A stretch of 64,000 nucleotides of DNA from an uncultured Pseudohongiella sp. (lineage in GTDB: Bacteria; Pseudomonadota; Gammaproteobacteria; Pseudomonadales; Pseudohongiellaceae), in assembly GCA_965216715.1 (NCBI GenBank), contig OZ244193.1, forward strand, positions 1,119,977 through 1,183,976. The letters are read 5' to 3'. Every line of letters starts with the position of its first letter. Within the stretch, counting starts at the first letter, position 1. The notes below the pieces were generated by a model. That model did not search any database, was not told the DNA's origin, and saw nothing but the letters and a program-made list of their open reading frames with translations. The translations under genes were made by a program, and so were the position numbers. This document shows, one piece after another, positions 38,291 through 53,816 of the stretch.

Positions 38291-39682
38291 ATGGACAGCA
38301 TCAGGAAAGGATACAGGAAATTGCCAGCATTTGATTATGATTTTTTCGTTATTGGCGCCGGTTCCGGGGGCGTTCGCGCCAGTCGCATTGCCGCCTCACT
38401 GGGAGCTCGAGTAGGCGTTGCCGAGGAACGCTATTTCGGGGGTACCTGCGTCAATGTGGGCTGCGTGCCCAAAAAACTGTTTTCCTATGCCGCCCATTTT
38501 GCCGATGACTTCGAGGACAGTCGTGGCTTTGGCTGGCAGGCCAGCAGACCGCCCTTCGACTGGCCCACTTTAATCAAGAATAAAGATACTGAAATCAAGC
38601 GTTTAAATGGCATTTATAAATCCTTGCTTGATAAAGCAGGGGTCACCATCCATGAATGCCGCGCGCGCCTGCTGGATGCCCATACCATCGATCTCGGCGA
38701 GCAGACCGTCACCGCCGACAAGATCCTGCTGGCGGTGGGTAGCTGGCCCTGGCTGCCGGATATTCCTGGTCGCGAACATGTACTCAGCTCCAATGAGATC
38801 TTCCATTTGCAGCAACTGCCGGAATCCATCCTGATCCAGGGCGGTGGCTATATTGCCGTGGAATTCGCCAGTATTTTCAGCCGCCTGGGCTGTGAAACCA
38901 CCCTTATCTACCGTGGCGACCGCCTGCTACGGGGTTTTGACGACGATGTCAGGCAGTTCATCACAGTCCAGTTTCAGCATGATGTGAACCTGATTCTCAA
39001 TGATGACATCAAGGAAATAAGCAAGAATGACAGGGGCTTACAGGTAGTTCTTGATTCTGGCAATGAACTTGAGGTGGAAACCGTCATGGCGGCCACCGGG
39101 CGGACGCCGCTGACGGCAGATCTGGGCCTGGACAAGGTTGCGGTAGAGCTTGGCAGCAATGATGCCATCAAGGTTAACGAGCAGTTTCAGACCCATGAGC
39201 CATCCATTTACGCCGTGGGTGATGTGATTGACCGGATGGCACTTACGCCAGTTGCACTTGCTGAAGGAGAATTCGTCGCCAGGTCTCTGTTTTCAAACGA
39301 AAAACATCGACCCATGGACTACCGGAATATCGCCACCGCCGTGTTCTGTCATCCCAATATCGCTACCGTGGGCCTGACCGAGGCAGAAGCCCTGGCAGCC
39401 GGGCACAAGCTGGATATTTACCAGGCTACCAGCAAGCCACTGAAACATACTCTCAGTGGCCGCGATGAGCCGGCATTCATCAAGCTGGTGGTGGATCAGG
39501 ACAGCGACAAGGTTCTGGGTGTCCATATCGTGTCCCAGGACGCCGGTGAACTGGTGCAGGGCTTCGCGGTAGCGCTTAACTGCGGTGCCACCAAGACTGA
39601 CTTTGACCGCACTATAGGTATTCATCCTACGCTGGCTGAGGAAGTAGTGACCATGCGCAGCAAGCGCGAGGTTAAAAGCTGA
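38291..39682 (+). CDS. gor: Glutathione-disulfide reductase
   Basis: 463 aa. Has GAGSGGVRA, the redox motif GGTCVNVGCVPKK, and a C-terminal HPTLAEE. A TTG start 30 nt downstream is also possible. Confidence 0.9.
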   Translation: MDSIRKGYRKLPAFDYDFFVIGAGSGGVRASRIAASLGARVGVAEERYFGGTCVNVGCVPKKLFSYAAHFADDFEDSRGFGWQASRPPFDWPTLIKNKDTEIKRLNGIYKSLLDKAGVTIHECRARLLDAHTIDLGEQTVTADKILLAVGSWPWLPDIPGREHVLSSNEIFHLQQLPESILIQGGGYIAVEFASIFSRLGCETTLIYRGDRLLRGFDDDVRQFITVQFQHDVNLILNDDIKEISKNDRGLQVVLDSGNELEVETVMAATGRTPLTADLGLDKVAVELGSNDAIKVNEQFQTHEPSIYAVGDVIDRMALTPVALAEGEFVARSLFSNEKHRPMDYRNIATAVFCHPNIATVGLTEAEALAAGHKLDIYQATSKPLKHTLSGRDEPAFIKLVVDQDSDKVLGVHIVSQDAGELVQGFAVALNCGATKTDFDRTIGIHPTLAEEVVTMRSKREVKS

Positions 39683-39839
39683 TAAGCCAGGCAGGCAGCC
39701 AGGCTGACTGATAGCCGCTGCCAGTCATAGCGCTTGCAGCGGTCAAAGTAGAGCGTTTCTGGCAAAAAGCGCTAACTGGTTGATCTGGCTTGGTTTTGCT
39801 GGATATACGCTGAAGACCCCATAAATCCATCCATTCCGC

Positions 39840-39869
39840 TATTTCCGGTAATAAAGATTACCGGAAATA
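39840..39869. repeat. Perfect 30-bp palindrome TATTTCCGGTAAT-AAAG-ATTACCGGAAATA
   Basis: 13-bp arms are read directly from the sequence. It can also be read as 11-bp arms around an 8-bp centre. No U-run follows, so it is not a classic terminator. Confidence 0.6.
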
Positions 39870-40400
39870 ACATAATAACTGTGCACGGCCCCATTCCTGG
39901 CTAATGCTGTAAGGCTCAATTTGCGCGATGGCATTAATAACGGCTATTCGTCACACCCAGTCCCATTGTCCCCAAGCCGCCGGTAATGCCTTGATCGCAA
40001 TCGTCTGACTACAACTGGGTAGGGACTGCGCCGTATCACCCTGCCGGCTGCCTTTCATGGTGATCAAGCAGGAGCTGATCTTGAGGTGCCAGATAAGGGT
40101 CTGGCTCACGATCAGGACAACCGCCACAAGCTCCTCAGTGAATATGGTCTGCGCAGAGACAGTCCCGCACTATTCCTCACACCCTGACTGCAGCCAGCTT
40201 AGGTAAAGATATCCCTGGTCAGCGCCAGGCGCCTCAAGCAAGCCTGGCTCAACGGGCCCGCTCGCAGTGCCGCCAATCAAGCCAATCTCTGGGTGCTATC
40301 AGGCAGCCATTCCTGGATCGTACCGCGCCGTGCATCAGCTGCTGGTCACTGCATCCTCAAACACATCATGAACTTCAGGTATAGTCATAATAAAAACTGA

Positions 40401-40438
40401 TATCTATATGATTTAATTATCTATATATAGTTTATCTA
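40401..40438. repeat. AT-rich block with three direct TATCTA(TAT) repeats
   Basis: TATCTATAT occurs at 40401 and 40418, and TATCTA at 40433, inside a roughly 60-bp AT-rich island (40381-40441). Function unknown. Confidence 0.4.
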
Positions 40439-40665
40439 AAAGCTGGAGAGCATAGCTTTAAGCCTCAAACAGGGGGCCTGGCCAGCGACCCGGTCATGGA
40501 CAGGCGATCAGCCCGGCAGGCCCGAAGCCAGTGTTTACGTGCCCTGAGCGCCATATATCAACCTTGGGCAGCAGGAATAAAACAGTGGTAAAGATAACTC
40601 TCAATTGACCGAAATATTTACTAAGGCCCTGCTTCAGGTCGCCATCCAGGCGCACTAGAATCTGC

Positions 40666-40685
40666 CCGGTAAAAATTATTTTACC
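40666..40685. promoter_or_regulatory. Imperfect palindrome CCGGTAAAA-ATTA-TTTTACCtc, 30 bp upstream of the recombinase start
   Basis: It shares the CCGGTAA half-site with the 39840 palindrome. It lies just downstream of a TAGAAT hexamer (40656-40661). Confidence 0.4.
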
Positions 40686-40714
40686 TCAGGTCAGATAGTT
40701 GTATTCTAAACTTC

Positions 40715-41929
40715 ATGTCCTCTCCCAAGAACGCAGCAAGCTCGCCCCTGGCCTTCTTCGACACCCTCGAAGCCATGCCCAATCCTTTCAAGCAGCCGGT
40801 GACCTCACTGGAGCATCTGGTCAGTGACGCCCCGGCCGATGCCATCAAGGACTACCAGTTTGCCAGCGAGTTTATCTACAGCTACCGCGGCAGCCCTGAC
40901 ACCTTCAGTACCTACCGCCGGGAAATCGAGCATTTCCTGCACTGGTGCTGGCTGATTGCCGACAAGTCCCTGGCAGCGGTGGAACGGGAGGATATTGAAA
41001 CCTATGTGGAATTCTCCCGTCAGCCTCCCCAGAGCTGGATTGGCGAACACAATGTGCCCCGCTTTATCGAGCGCGGCGGCAAGCGTCTGCCCAATAGCGA
41101 CTGGCGCCCCTATGTCAGCAAACGCGGTGAGTATGTGCTGTCCCAGTCCGCCATCCAATCCTTATTCAGCGTATTAAGTAGTTTCTTTAACTTTCTGATT
41201 CAGGAGAACTATTTATCCGCCAATCCGGTCTCGCAGATGCGTCAGAAAAGCAAATTTCTGCGCAAGCACCAGTCCCAGGGCAAGATTCGCCGGCTCTCAC
41301 CTTTGCAATGGGATACCGTAATCGAGACCGCCGAGGACATGGCCCGACAGGACCCGGCCAGGCATGAGCGCACCCTGTTTGTGATGAACGCCCTGTTCGC
41401 CATGTATCTGCGTATCTCGGAACTGGTGGAAACACCCCGCTGGCAACCGCAAATGGGTCATTTTCAGGTGGATCAGGAAGGCAACTGGTGGTTCGTCACC
41501 GTCGGCAAGGGCAACAAGGAACGGGAAATCTCGGTCAGCGACGCCATGCTGGAAGCCCTCAAGCGCTACCGGCGCTCCCGGGGCCTGCCATCCCTGCCCA
41601 GCCCCGGCGAGCCCAGCCCCCTGATTCACAAGACCCGCGGCAAAGGCGGCATCACCAGTACCCGCCAGATTCGCGGCATCGTGCAGAAATGCTTCGATCT
41701 GGCGGCGGAAAAAATGCGTAAGGAAGGCTTTGAAGAGGAAGCGCAGCGCCTGGGTGACGCCACGGTACATTGGCTCCGTCACACCGGCATCTCGGAAGAT
41801 GTTAAGCATCGGCCTCGGGAACACGTAAGAGATGATGCCGGTCATGGTTCCAGCGCCATTACCGATCGCTACATCGACGTCGAACGCGCCGAGCGTCATG
41901 CTTCCGCGCGCAACAAACTGATACGCTGA
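40715..41929 (+). CDS. Tyrosine-type site-specific recombinase/integrase (catalytic residues intact)
   Basis: 404 aa. It has an N-terminal SAM-like core-binding region (YRREIEHFLHWCW). The catalytic set is Arg in MYLRISE, the beta-hairpin Lys in GKGNKER, HWLRHT, and GHGSSAITDRY (His plus the Tyr nucleophile). No obvious Shine-Dalgarno sequence. Confidence 0.85.
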   Translation: MSSPKNAASSPLAFFDTLEAMPNPFKQPVTSLEHLVSDAPADAIKDYQFASEFIYSYRGSPDTFSTYRREIEHFLHWCWLIADKSLAAVEREDIETYVEFSRQPPQSWIGEHNVPRFIERGGKRLPNSDWRPYVSKRGEYVLSQSAIQSLFSVLSSFFNFLIQENYLSANPVSQMRQKSKFLRKHQSQGKIRRLSPLQWDTVIETAEDMARQDPARHERTLFVMNALFAMYLRISELVETPRWQPQMGHFQVDQEGNWWFVTVGKGNKEREISVSDAMLEALKRYRRSRGLPSLPSPGEPSPLIHKTRGKGGITSTRQIRGIVQKCFDLAAEKMRKEGFEEEAQRLGDATVHWLRHTGISEDVKHRPREHVRDDAGHGSSAITDRYIDVERAERHASARNKLIR

Positions 41930-42121: not shown

Positions 42122-44356
42122 ATGCGAATCTGGAACAAGACGCCTGCATTGACTAAAGGCTTTCAAGCCATCGCCCTGCTCGGCTTCAGCGGCCTGGCCA
42201 ACCCCCTCCTTGCCCAGGACGACCCCACTCAGCTCAACACCGTCCTCAATATCGACAGCCTTTACACCCCGGTAGTCAGTGAGGAGATCCACGGCATTAC
42301 CGCCGCCGAGCTGATTGAGGAATTGCAGAACAAACACTACGCAGCAGTTGAGGTAAATGATAACTTTTCCTCGCAACTGTTTGACGCCTATATGGATTTG
42401 CTTGATGGACAGCATCTGTATTTTCTGCAGTCTGACATCGAACAACTGAGCCATCTGCGCTACACCCTCGATGACAGCCTCAAGGCTGGCGATGTTGAGC
42501 CAGGCTTTGAAATCTACAATCTCTACTACAAGCGCATCCTCGAGCGGCTTATCTATGCCATTAACCGGGTTGAGAACGATATCCCCAATATGGATTTCAG
42601 TGTCGATGAAACCATCGATATCGACCGGGAAGACGCCCCCTATGCCAGCAACCAGGAAGAACTGGATGAGATCTGGCGCAAGCGCATCAAGAACAGCGTA
42701 CTGAGCCTGCGTCTGGCCGGTGATGACAATGAAGAGATCAAGGAAAAACTCAGCAAGCGTTACCGCAACCAGCTGAGCCAGGTGCTCAAGACCAACAGCA
42801 AGGATATTTTCCAGTCCTATCTGTCCTCGGTCGCCAAGGCAGTGGATCCCCACACGGATTACTACTCGCCCCGGGATTCCGAAAATTTCAACATGCAGCT
42901 GTCCCTGTCACTCCAGGGTATCGGTGCCCAGCTTACTACCGAAGACGAATACACCAAGGTAGTTGAGCTCATCAAGGGCGGCCCGGCCGAGCGCGGCAGC
43001 GAGCTGCGTGCCGGTGACCGCATTATTGGCATCGGCCAGGGTGTGGATGGCGAGATTCAGGATGTGGTCGGCATGCGCCTGGATGACGTGGTGGACCAGA
43101 TCCGCGGTGAGAAAGGCACTGTGGTGCGTCTCAATGTCATTCCTGCTGACGCCGTCAGCGAGTCGGCAGCCACGGTAGTGTCCATTACCCGCGATACCGT
43201 CAAGCTGGAAGACCAGTCTGCCAAGAGCGAAGTACTGGAGCTCAGCTACAATGGCCAGGACTACAAGATCGGCGTCATCAATCTGCCCACTTTCTATTTT
43301 GATTTCGAAGCGGCTTCCCGCGGCGACGAAGACTACAAGAGCTCCACCCGAGACGTTCGTGCCCTGCTGGAAGAACTGAAGGCTGAACAGGTGGATGCGG
43401 TGGTCATGGACCTGAGAAACAACGGCGGTGGCAGCCTCTCGGAAGCCAATCAGCTGGTGGGCCTGTTTATTGAAACCGGCGCCACAGTGCAGATTCGTTA
43501 TTCCGGCATTCGCAACGGCTTCACCCGTTCCTTCGGCGACAATGACCCGGAGGTGGCCTACTCCGGCCCCCTGGCGGTGCTGGTTAATCGTACCAGTGCC
43601 TCGGCCTCGGAGATTTTCGCCGGCGCCATTCAGGACTATCAGCGCGGCATCGTGCTGGGCGGTCAGACCTTTGGCAAGGGCACGGTGCAGGAAATCATTC
43701 CCATGGACTATGGCCAGGTGAAAGTAACCCGCTCCAAGTTCTATCGTATTTCCGGCGCCAGTACCCAGCACCGTGGCGTGATTCCGGATATCACTTTCCC
43801 GGATATCTATGACGCCTACGAAGACATCGGCGAAAGCAGCCTGGATGGTGCCTTGCCCTGGGATACCGTGCGCCCGGTTGAATACCGCCCCTATCACTCC
43901 ATTCAGGCTCTGCTGCCTGAGCTGCGGGAGCGATTCGAGGCCCGCGCCGCGCACTCGCCGGACTTCATCTATATGGAAGACCAGATCGAGCGCACCCGAC
44001 GTGGCCTGGAACGGGAGCGCATTTCCCTCAATGAAGAACAGGTGAAAGCCCGCCGTGAACGTGAACGCCGGGAAGAATTCGACGCTGAAAACATGCGTCG
44101 CTTCCTCAAGGGTCTGCCACTGCGCGAATGGATCGCCGCAGACGACCTGGACAATGAGGATGAAGAAGCCCCTGTAACCCCTGCCAATGACGACAGCTCC
44201 CTGGCAGCGGACGACAGCACAGCGGACAACAGCGAAGAGGAAGAAGAAGCTGATCCCATGCTGCTGGAAAGCGGTCGCATTTTGGCCGACTTCATGAGCC
44301 TGAACGAGCCCCGCCTGTCACGCCTGGACAACCTGCCTGAACAGCGACGTCAGTAG
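42122..44356 (+). CDS. prc: Tail-specific (C-terminal processing) protease, S41 family
   Basis: 744 aa. It has a signal peptide, a PDZ domain (GDRIIGIGQG), an S41 core (NNGGGSL, SASASEIFAGA, GKGTVQ), and a long acidic C-terminal extension. Confidence 0.9.
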   Translation: MRIWNKTPALTKGFQAIALLGFSGLANPLLAQDDPTQLNTVLNIDSLYTPVVSEEIHGITAAELIEELQNKHYAAVEVNDNFSSQLFDAYMDLLDGQHLYFLQSDIEQLSHLRYTLDDSLKAGDVEPGFEIYNLYYKRILERLIYAINRVENDIPNMDFSVDETIDIDREDAPYASNQEELDEIWRKRIKNSVLSLRLAGDDNEEIKEKLSKRYRNQLSQVLKTNSKDIFQSYLSSVAKAVDPHTDYYSPRDSENFNMQLSLSLQGIGAQLTTEDEYTKVVELIKGGPAERGSELRAGDRIIGIGQGVDGEIQDVVGMRLDDVVDQIRGEKGTVVRLNVIPADAVSESAATVVSITRDTVKLEDQSAKSEVLELSYNGQDYKIGVINLPTFYFDFEAASRGDEDYKSSTRDVRALLEELKAEQVDAVVMDLRNNGGGSLSEANQLVGLFIETGATVQIRYSGIRNGFTRSFGDNDPEVAYSGPLAVLVNRTSASASEIFAGAIQDYQRGIVLGGQTFGKGTVQEIIPMDYGQVKVTRSKFYRISGASTQHRGVIPDITFPDIYDAYEDIGESSLDGALPWDTVRPVEYRPYHSIQALLPELRERFEARAAHSPDFIYMEDQIERTRRGLERERISLNEEQVKARRERERREEFDAENMRRFLKGLPLREWIAADDLDNEDEEAPVTPANDDSSLAADDSTADNSEEEEEADPMLLESGRILADFMSLNEPRLSRLDNLPEQRRQ

Positions 44357-45125: not shown

Positions 45126-45215
45126 TGGCGGAGGGGGAGAGATTCGAACTCTCGGAAGACTTTCGCCTTCGCTGGTTTTCAAGACCAGTGCATTCAACCG
45201 CTCTGCCACCCCTCC
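45126..45215 (-). tRNA. serT: tRNA-Ser (anticodon UGA)
   Basis: 90 nt with encoded CCA. The acceptor is GGAGGGG/CCCCTCC, the anticodon loop CUUGAAA, there is a long variable arm, and the T-arm is GAGAGTTCGAATCTCTC. Confidence 0.93.
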
Positions 45216-51482: not shown

Positions 51483-53816
51483 TCAGTCACGTGGAGGTGG
51501 CGGTGCGATGACTTCCCGGGAGCCGTTACTGCTCATTTCTGAAACCACCCCTGCCGCTTCCATGGATTCTATCATACGGGCGGCCCGGTTATAGCCGATT
51601 CGCAGCTTGCGCTGTACCGCCGAAATGGATGCCTTGCGGGACTCGGTGACAAAACGCACCGCTTCATCATAAAGGGCATCGTCTTCTTCACCCTCGCCGC
51701 TGTCGCCACCACCGCCCATGGCACCCATGTCCATATCATCGGCGCCCTGGGTAATCTCGTCGATATAGACCGGTTCTCCGCGTTCTTTCCAGTCAGCCAC
51801 CACGCGATGCACTTCCTCATCACTGACAAAGGCACCGTGTACGCGGGTGGGCACGCCACCGCCGGGCGGCAGAAACAGCATATCGCCATGACCCAGCAAC
51901 TGCTCGGCACCCCCTTCCCCGAGAATGGTGCGCGAGTCCACCTTGGACTGCACCATGAATGACAATCGGGTGGGTACATTGGCCTTGATCAGGCCGGTTA
52001 GCACGTCCACCGACGGACGCTGGGTGGCCAGGATCAGATGAATACCGGCTGCCCTTGCCTTCTGGGCGATCCGGGCAATCAGTTCCTCTACTTTCTTGCC
52101 CACCACCATCATCATGTCCGCCAGCTCGTCGACGATCACCACGATACAGGGCAAGGCTTCCAGCTCCGGTGCCTGCTGCTCTTCTTCCAGCAACATCGGA
52201 TCCGGCTTCCAGGTGGGATCCATGATGGGTTTGCCAGCCTTCTTGGCATCCACCACCTTCTTGTTGAAGCCCGCCAGATTGCGCACGCCCAGGGCCGACA
52301 TCAGTTTGTAGCGACGCTCCATTTCCGCCACACACCAGCGCAGGCCATTGGCGGCATCCTTCATGTCGGTGATCACCGGCGTCAGCAGATGGGGAATACC
52401 GTCGTAGACCGACAACTCCAGCATCTTCGGATCAATCATGATCAGGCGCACATGTTCCGGCGTGGACTTGAACAGCAGGCTCAGGATCATGGCATTGATA
52501 CCCACCGACTTACCGGAGCCGGTGGTACCGGCCACCAGCAGGTGGGGCATCTTGGCCAGATCCACGATCACCGGCTTGCCGACGATGTCATGCCCCAGGG
52601 CCATGGAAAGCGGCGAACTGGCACGATCGAAGTCCGCCGAGGACAATACCTGGCTCAGTTGAATGATTTCCCGCTTCTCGTTGGGAATCTCGATACCGAT
52701 GACGGTCTTGCCCGGGATCACTTCCACCACCCGCACAGAAATCACCGCAAGTGAGCGCGCCAGGTCCTTGACCAGATTACTGATTCTGCTGACCTTCACC
52801 CCCGGAGCCGGCTGCACCTCAAAGCGGGTAATCACCGGGCCCGGGTTCACTGCAGTCACCTCGATGTCGATACCAAAGTCCTTAAGCTTGAGTTCCAGCA
52901 GCTTCGACATGGCCTCCAGGGATTCCTTGGAAAAACCCGAGTCATTGGTTTCATGCCAGGCATCCAGCAGGCCGATGGCCGGTAGCTCCTTGACCGAATT
53001 GGCGGCGAACAGGGTGCCCTGTCGCTCCTTTTCCACCCGCTTGCTCTTCTCCGGCTGTCTCGGAGCCGGTGCCTTGATGGTGGGCGGTACGCGCTTTTTC
53101 TCTTTGGCAATGTGGATATCCAGCACCTTTTTGCGGCTCTCCAGACGTTCCTTGGCGGCTGCCGCCTGTTTGCGATCTTCCAGCCACTTGTTGAAGCGGC
53201 CTGCCACGAAGCTGCTGCCATTCAGGGTCCATTGCCCCAGGCGATCCACCACATCCAGCCAGGAGATGGTGACGGTAATGGTGAGTCCGAACAGGAAGCT
53301 GGCCAGCAACACCAGGGTCGATCCCAGCACCGCCAGCACCGGCACAAACAGGTCCACCACCAGGGAGCCCACTACCCCGCCCGCCAGATAGGTAACCTGG
53401 GGCGGAATTTCGAAATGCAGGGTGGCCAGACCACAGGCAGAAATCATCAACAGGAAAAAGCCCAGGGACTTGATGGCAAGCAGTGGCCAGGAAAAGGGCG
53501 CGGGGTTTTCGCTTTCCCGGTAGGCGCTGTAAATCTTGTAGCCCAGAAAAACCGGCAAGCCATAGGCCAGGTAGCCCACCAGGTGCAGCAGGATATCGGC
53601 CACCCAGGCGCCATAGACCCCCACTGCGTTGTCCACAGCCCCGCCACTGCCGGTAGTGGTGAAGCCCGGGTCGTCTGGCGAGTAGCTCACCAGGGCAATC
53701 AGCAGAAACAAGGCCAGCAGGAAATAGGCGATCAGCGAGCCTTCTCGCGTCACGCGCTGGATGACAGTTTCTACTTCGGCCTTGTTGTCAGGCTTGCTCA
53801 TGGTTGTATTTTTCAA
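51483..53816 (-). CDS. ftsK: DNA translocase FtsK
   Basis: 777 aa. It has N-terminal TM helices, Walker A GTTGSGKS, and a C-terminal winged-helix gamma domain ([17 protein letters not shown]). Confidence 0.95.

Follow-up and report, generated by a model that had tools for sequence, protein, structure and literature searches.

Recombination at the 29-bp dif site of Legionella pneumophila proceeds independently of RecA and needs a single recombinase, termed XerL (Lpg1867, catalytic residue Y387), which is both necessary and sufficient (PMC9765430). The arms of the Legionella dif are perfectly symmetric, the site is close to the GC-skew maximum (PMC9765430), and loss of XerL leads to filamentation, as shown for Legionella and Coxiella (Nicholson, Deecker & Ensminger, mBio 2022, PMC9765430). 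The search in that study covered the Legionellales only, and xerL was called restricted to this order. Here we analyse a 64-kb stretch of contig OZ244193.1 from a Pseudohongiella sp. (the window, to which all coordinates refer unless marked as genome positions), in which a tyrosine recombinase gene (40715-41929) is preceded by a 30-bp palindrome (39840-39869). Together, these very probably constitute a XerL/dif chromosome dimer resolution module at the replication terminus, and the single-enzyme system most likely replaces the usual XerC/XerD pair in this organism. The observations behind this reading are the homology of the recombinase, the recombinase repertoire of its genome, the conservation and uniqueness of the site, its position at the terminus and at the switch of FtsK-orienting motifs, and the mutual exclusion of XerL and XerC/XerD.

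Some gammaproteobacteria with large genomes have no detectable dif/Xer, and how dimers are resolved there has been asked (Carnoy and Roten 2009, PMC2731167). XerL answered this question for the Legionellales in 2022. The present locus is evidence that enzymes of this family, paired with a nearby dif of defined sequence, do this job in free-living marine Pseudohongiellaceae. The kind of system is already known. In the papers searched, only two on bacteria mention XerL and neither reports it beyond the Legionellales; the linked dif-xerL layout and this dif sequence did not turn up there either.

A XerL-type recombinase and its distribution

The recombinase is 54% identical to XerL of L. pneumophila Lp02 over 367 residues (BLASTP, E 3e-151; Lp02 sequence from Table S3 of PMC9765430). 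Y386 aligns with the catalytic tyrosine of the Lp02 protein (Y387), with TDRYID opposite TDRYID. The earlier note on this DNA had described a recombinase with an intact catalytic set, and all of its residues (R233, K265, H352, R355, H377 and Y386) are indeed present and invariant in the recombinase alignment. The PF00589 domain scores 33.2 bits. Assignment to XerC or XerD was rejected because the scores on both models (TIGR02224 and TIGR02225) are far under the cut-offs, at 70.6 and 61.1 bits against 335.15 and 329.6. No protein in the PDB matched by sequence at E <=0.01.

A scan of named genomes recovered homologs at 52-59% identity in Legionella, Coxiellaceae, Rickettsiella, Aquirickettsiella and Berkiellales, and likewise in Saccharospirillum, Reinekea, Marinomonas and Granulosicoccus. 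One Legionella homolog (L104) lies on the contig that PMC9765430 gives for L. gresilensis XerL. In a maximum-likelihood tree, Lp02 XerL and the sequences from Coxiellaceae, Saccharospirillaceae, Marinomonas and Pseudohongiellaceae form one family devoid of long branches. Lp02 XerL is placed within the Legionella clade; the Pseudohongiellaceae clade is supported at 100/97 and is sister to Saccharospirillaceae plus Granulosicoccus. The subfamily placement that the earlier note had proposed to make by profile searches ends in the XerL family, with the XerC, XerD and XerS cut-offs all missed. The tree also holds three oddly labelled genes. The xerL of a metagenome-assembled genome (MAG) named 'Wolbachia endosymbiont of Folsomia candida' (L079) falls within the Rickettsiella/Aquirickettsiella clade, and those of two 'Alphaproteobacteria' MAGs (L096, L100) group with an uncultured gammaproteobacterium in the half of the tree that contains the Legionellales. 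These three cases reflect either mislabelled or contaminated bins, or horizontal transfer.

Of 24 genomes in the genus, 21 have a homolog at 73-84% identity; the three without one are 69-90% complete. The gene adjoins prc in 19 of 19 genus loci examined, and of the 11 loci that extend far enough upstream, 10 have gor there; it was not found in the remaining one (G012). The recombinase gene is thus vertically inherited beside prc throughout the family. Being single-copy and constant in its place next to prc across the genus, the recombinase belongs to the host and not to an island, in line with the earlier note's description of an orphan lacking island cargo. The same inheritance removes the suggestion that the DNA upstream is a decayed island of this recombinase. 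An integrase of a phage, an integrative and conjugative element or a genomic island was likewise rejected: the gene is single-copy with a fixed place by prc, there is no second dif-like site and no mobile-element gene, and the nearest tRNA (tRNA-Ser, 45126-45215) lies past prc.

The genome itself (G000) is a single contig of 3.53 Mb, estimated to be 99.98% complete, and holds only two PF00589 genes. The second (G000:C1:924836-925792) encodes an integron integrase, scoring 374 bits on TIGR02249 against a cut-off of 265. No XerC or XerD comes near the model cut-offs anywhere in this complete genome. Among 41 related genomes, G000 included, no genome positive for a XerL-type gene carries canonical XerC/XerD, and XerL is missing from all 9 genomes with canonical XerC and/or XerD. 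One relative (G029, 75% complete) yielded a XerC-type match only.

The same pattern holds across the class. In an even, family-balanced draw of 300 Gammaproteobacteria genomes, each at least 90% complete, XerL-type genes occur in 69. Canonical XerD plus XerC were found in 2 of the 68 other XerL-positive genomes; one of these has only a 37%-identical XerL-like match, and the other, a MAG, is 7% contaminated. By comparison, 16 of 20 XerL-negative genomes from this draw carry canonical XerD/XerC. No other Xer (XerC, XerD, XerS or XerH) was detected across the genus or in 65 of the 68 XerL-positive genomes of the class. In short, the two kinds of gene, XerL-type and canonical XerC/XerD, exclude each other almost completely. 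In a separate observation, one XerL-positive relative (G027; 6.9 Mb in 1190 contigs) holds 16 XerD-like matches of 111-256 bits on small contigs. These look like a multi-copy, recombinase-bearing mobile element and not like XerC/XerD.

A conserved palindrome at the terminus

The palindrome upstream of the recombinase gene is perfect, with two 13-bp arms around 4 bp, and can also be divided into 11-bp arms and an 8-bp centre. The earlier note had compared this geometry to lox/dif-like core sites, and the comparison is borne out. Of the whole spacer, the palindrome alone aligns with the gor-recombinase gaps of eight relatives, at 86-97% identity over 28-42 bp, and its 20-bp core, CCGGTAAT-N4-ATTACCGG, is identical in all eight and across the Pseudohongiellaceae. 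The gor proteins of those relatives are only 60-73% identical despite this conservation. A comparison of the gor-prc interval among related genomes, as the earlier note had recommended, thus returned a palindrome kept in all eight within surrounding DNA that is not alignable. The site is retained in 8 of 8 relative loci of 16 kb, and in 23 of 39 Pseudohongiellaceae-type loci for which only 3-kb flanks were available.

Where the outer arms differ between lineages, they differ symmetrically (ATTTCC/GGAAAT, ATGTCC/GGACAT and AATTCC/GGAATT), which is what a homodimer site, with both halves read by one protein, should show. The 4-bp centre is AAAG or, in a subclade, CTTT, with AAAA and AATA seen once each. 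The CTTT centre, relative to xerL, is found in one Pseudohongiellaceae subclade (L056-L058, L060, L062, L064 and L067), and either the site or the gene is inverted there relative to the other.

Position and copy number both point to a terminus site. The cumulative GC skew of the genome has its maximum at 1,155,081 and its minimum at 2,876,070; the palindrome, at genome 1,159,816-1,159,845, lies 4.7 kb from the maximum, on its plateau. In 20-kb windows sampled from three more complete genomes of this genus, the skew changes sign from positive to negative across the locus. The E. coli FtsK-orienting polar sequence (KOPS), GGGNAGGG, occurs 263 times forward and 46 times reverse on one replichore, and 63 and 239 times on the other. 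Its cumulative maximum falls at genome 1,159,993 (40017 in the window), about 150 bp from the palindrome, which is also the position of the last forward copy; the first reverse copy follows at genome 1,161,568 (41592). The ftsK gene is only about 10 kb from xerL and the palindrome, hence itself at the terminus, and its product is the likely partner translocase of the site. Elsewhere in the genome, only two other matches to the core were found at up to one mismatch, and both are coding: one lies in a murE-like gene, the other in a response-regulator gene. The palindrome occurs exactly once per genome in 4 of 5 further genomes, with no control hits. The genome of the cultured species P. nitratireducens carries xerL together with one copy of the site. 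Read from its conservation, its uniqueness and its place at the terminus, the palindrome is most likely the dif of this chromosome, and is referred to below as the predicted dif.

The site extends beyond the family. Distant lineages, among them uncultured Coxiellaceae MAGs, likewise have the core with extended symmetric arms next to xerL; it stands 58 bp upstream of xerL in two loci (L078, L083), and two more (L086, L093) carry it too. A spacing of 58-250 bp between the site and a downstream xerL recurs in many lineages and is probably the original arrangement. Searches for the core in three Legionella genomes and in Reinekea and Marinomonas genomes returned only chance matches in coding sequence, which indicates that the recognition sequence drifts within the family and that this core is not universal. 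A further uncultured Coxiellaceae MAG (L107) carries two different long palindromes upstream of one xerL, at 1569-1604 and 2695-2728. Their cores, GTAAT/GTAAC-N4-ATTAC/GTTAC, recall the chromosomal and plasmid dif variants of Coxiella.

A palindrome behind a gene invites other explanations. It could be a transcription-factor operator, or an RNA hairpin or terminator following gor, with a recombinase that was domesticated for some other role. The site does begin 157 bp past the end of gor, such palindromes are common as terminators, and a weak RsmY-like match lies nearby at 39646-39745. This match was the only return from Rfam and scores 18 bits against a gathering score of 57, and an RNA element was rejected. 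The palindrome has neither a GC-rich stem nor a T-run, and it is its sequence, not structure alone, that is conserved at 86-97%. Among the eight relatives it begins about 70-260 bp past the boundary of the preceding gene, and it is retained in G012, where that gene is alkB-like and gor is missing; it also accompanies xerL in distant lineages without gor. A regulon motif was tried and rejected, since the genome-wide core search gave only the two coding matches: there is no other intergenic copy, and so no regulon. Autoregulation through an operator, as the earlier note had offered, fails to explain why the site is unique in the genome, falls at the GC-skew and KOPS switch and stands at anything from 99 bp to about 5 kb from the gene. 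We therefore regard an operator or hairpin as very unlikely.

Several points weigh against the XerL/dif reading. The genome is rich in perfect palindromes with arms of at least 12 bp, mostly terminator-like, so palindromy alone does not make the site special. The extended palindrome with this core is absent from the three Legionella genomes searched, and the published Legionella dif differs in sequence and in its 10-bp arms; the assignment of the site to the enzyme consequently rests on position and co-occurrence. The exclusion figures given above are counts, not a statistical test, and overstate the significance because related genomes are not independent. The forward KOPS-type motif at 40017 falls about 150 bp to the wrong side of the palindrome; it sits in the non-conserved spacer, which fits a recent arrival of the spacer DNA. 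Finally, XerL binding, the positions of cleavage, dependence on FtsK and the phenotype would follow only by homology to the Legionella XerL/dif system.

The features of the locus are collected in Table 1. The earlier note had placed both palindromes, the spacer, the recombinase and its gor and prc flanks correctly, and all were re-found; the position at the terminus, the lack of XerC/XerD and the relationship to XerL had escaped it.

Table 1. Annotated features around the predicted XerL/dif module, in window coordinates
Feature	Position	Strand	Remarks
gor, glutathione-disulfide reductase	38291-39682	+	NF004776 579.5 bits (cut-off 480); conserved left neighbour
Predicted dif palindrome	39840-39869	.	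TATTTCCGGTAAT-AAAG-ATTACCGGAAATA; core at 39845-39864
Non-conserved spacer without open reading frames, between predicted dif and xerL promoter region	39870-40600	.	
Lone CCGGTAAT in spacer	39980		
Forward GGGNAGGG in spacer	40017-40024		
AT-rich block with repeated TATCTATAT	about 40381-40441		within spacer
xerL upstream region, probably promoter and 5' untranslated region	40606-40714	+	contains second palindrome
Second palindrome, GGTAAAA-ATTA-TTTTACC	40668-40685		30 bp before the ATG at 40715
xerL, 404-amino-acid tyrosine recombinase	40715-41929	+	ortholog of Legionella pneumophila XerL (Lpg1867)
First reverse GGGNAGGG (KOPS-type) right of predicted dif	41592-41599	-	genome 1161568
prc, tail-specific protease	42122-44356	+	conserved right neighbour of xerL
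ftsK with gamma (KOPS-reading) domain	51483-53816	-	777-amino-acid open reading frame; PF09397 97 bits at genome 1171480-1171665

The DNA between site and gene

The 1032 bp before the recombinase (39683-40714) contain no open reading frame (ORF) of at least 60 codons, just as the earlier note had reported. The alignment of G000 with its closest relative (L132) is confined to the predicted dif and the ~110 bp directly ahead of xerL, the latter matching at 72%. The dif-xerL gaps of relatives (loci L013-L022, L130 and L132) hold differing sets of genes, including one for a 335-amino-acid secreted protein, a split GGDEF gene, genes for a CBS protein and for unknown proteins of 400 and 241 amino acids, and a GST-like gene. 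Four lineages share the secreted protein at 70-81% identity, and in G008 it is decaying. This plasticity is one-sided: the distance from gor to the site is nearly constant at 70-260 bp, and that from the site to xerL runs from 99 bp to 5 kb. The 845 bp between the predicted dif and xerL are thus fast-turnover DNA on one side of the site, outside the machine itself.

Searches of the spacer returned little. Pfam gave no signal in its six-frame translation, eight proteins from relatives' gaps matched it by tblastn only at E >0.4, and tblastx found only marginal collinear matches to the GGDEF region of one relative. The genome has no other copy of the spacer. A scan for promoters and terminators found nothing over shuffle expectation and no sigma-70 consensus match, and the sequences upstream of the xerL start share only AT-richness among relatives. 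The AT-rich TATCTATAT block is conserved in none of the relatives' gaps and occurs nowhere else in the genome.

The earlier note had singled out the octamer CCGGTAAT/CCGGTAAA, at 39845, 39857 (inverted), 39980 and 40666, and two palindromes containing it. All four octamers are there, and the first palindrome is more than chance; the extra octamer copies and the second palindrome, which is not conserved, look like chance. CCGGTAA occurs at 0.26 per kb genome-wide, against which a spacer with two extra copies has a Poisson P of about 0.03. In relatives' gaps the motif is not enriched, with only 2 copies in 16.2 kb. A short-loop palindrome with 7-bp arms is calculated to arise about 0.5 times per kb by chance. 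The second palindrome is absent from the other relatives, even from one with an 89%-identical recombinase, and since such palindromes are also common by chance, it and the lone octamer are treated as chance. Despite its place in the xerL promoter region, the second palindrome is thus probably a chance feature.

This bears on the first proposal of the earlier note, that the palindromes are recombinase core sites bounding a segment of about 820 bp that inverts or excises and so controls xerL or a neighbour. Two CCGGTAA palindromes at that distance beside a tyrosine recombinase are what suggested it. The second site, however, is conserved in no relative and differs in arm spacing, being GGTAA-8-TTACC where the first is GGTAA-6-TTACC. 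In relatives, the segment measures anything from 99 bp to 5 kb and its content is unrelated; apart from its 4-bp centre, the first site shows perfect symmetry, and it lies at the terminus; and the recombinase family is that of XerL, a validated dimer-resolution enzyme. A two-site switch, with its second site non-conserved, differently spaced and missing from close relatives, is accordingly extremely unlikely.

A further reading would add to the XerL/dif module without replacing it. The ORF-free DNA could be what is left of an insertion at dif by an integrative mobile element exploiting Xer (IMEX), with the second palindrome as a decayed hybrid dif at the far junction. The model for this is LME-1, whose integration in Legionella yields an unaltered dif at one end of the element and a modified copy at the other (PMC9765430). 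The near-constant distance from gor to the site beside variable distance and gene content towards xerL is in keeping with such a scar, as are the probably ancestral spacing of 58-250 bp in many lineages, the forward KOPS motif on the wrong side of the site, and the CCGGTAA and TTACC shared by the second palindrome and the predicted dif. Against it, the spacer of G000 has no second dif-like site at up to 8 mismatches in 20, the second palindrome matches the predicted dif at only 12 of 24 positions ungapped and is missing in the closest relatives, and no protein remnant or mobile-element gene is detectable. The genes in relatives' gaps are moreover vertically shared (the 335-amino-acid protein) and decaying in G008, for which differential loss is a better fit than repeated integration. 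On balance, we consider an insertion scar unlikely. In relatives' gaps, the search for a second dif-like site gave one weak, partial match, in the genome with the largest dif-xerL gap (G018, 5 kb): it lies 42 bp beyond the predicted dif (L015:5148-5171), has 5 mismatches in 20 and the right arm ATTACCAGAA, and could be a junction remnant or chance.

The most far-reaching version of these ideas would take XerL/dif as a major second dimer-resolution system of the Gammaproteobacteria and not a peculiarity of the Legionellales, standing in for XerC/XerD in roughly one in five genomes of a family-balanced set. It would have started out as a portable cassette of dif and xerL. In the Pseudohongiellaceae, one side of dif would have become a recurrent landing pad for the turnover of XerL-dependent, IMEX-like cargo, the 845-bp spacer and the second palindrome being the scar. 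We hold this combined proposal to be quite unlikely.

Predicted mechanism and relation to known systems

For the XerL/dif module itself, a mechanism can be proposed by analogy with Legionella. An odd number of crossovers would fuse sister chromosomes into a dimer. Two XerL protomers may then occupy the identical arms of each dif copy, and four protomers would synapse the two sites. Y386 would cut and rejoin strands on either side of a short central region, made up of AAAG and adjacent bases, and this one extra crossover would resolve the dimer to monomers. With KOPS-type motifs converging on the site and a gamma domain in the ftsK product, FtsK probably brings both dif copies together at the septum.

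The locus has practical consequences. "Orphan integrases" of this kind should be annotated as xerL and not as markers of mobile elements. The site provides a precise terminus marker for these genomes, and is also a candidate attachment site for Xer-exploiting elements.

The closest known relative is the XerL/dif system of the Legionellales, described for L. pneumophila (Lpg1867) and Coxiella burnetii. The recombinases are orthologous at 54% identity, with about 400 amino acids and an equivalent catalytic tyrosine, and in each case one recombinase serves a gammaproteobacterial host without XerC/XerD. Both also have a dif of about 30 bp with long, uninterrupted and perfectly symmetric arms. Here, however, the host is a free-living marine member of the Pseudohongiellaceae (Pseudomonadales in GTDB) and the function is predicted. 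The predicted dif and xerL are linked, 99 bp to 5 kb apart, whereas more than 400 kb separate them in L. pneumophila. The arms measure 13 bp, as opposed to 10 bp in Legionella and 12 bp in Coxiella; in sequence, too, the site is unlike that of Legionella.

Other single-enzyme systems share the layout. In XerS/difSL of streptococci and lactococci and in XerH/difH of Helicobacter and Campylobacter, a single Xer gene likewise lies beside dif at the terminus, with FtsK present. Their recombinases belong to a different clade from the one described here, which reaches 32.7 bits on the XerS model (cut-off 267), and their dif sites are only partly symmetric, unlike the palindrome. The XerC/XerD-dif system of E. 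coli and most proteobacteria has the same job as predicted here, the same location at the terminus and the same KOPS motif, GGGNAGGG, polarised to the site. That system uses two recombinases on an asymmetric 28-bp site with a 6-bp centre; in Pseudohongiella, a single XerL-type enzyme is predicted to act on a perfectly symmetric one.

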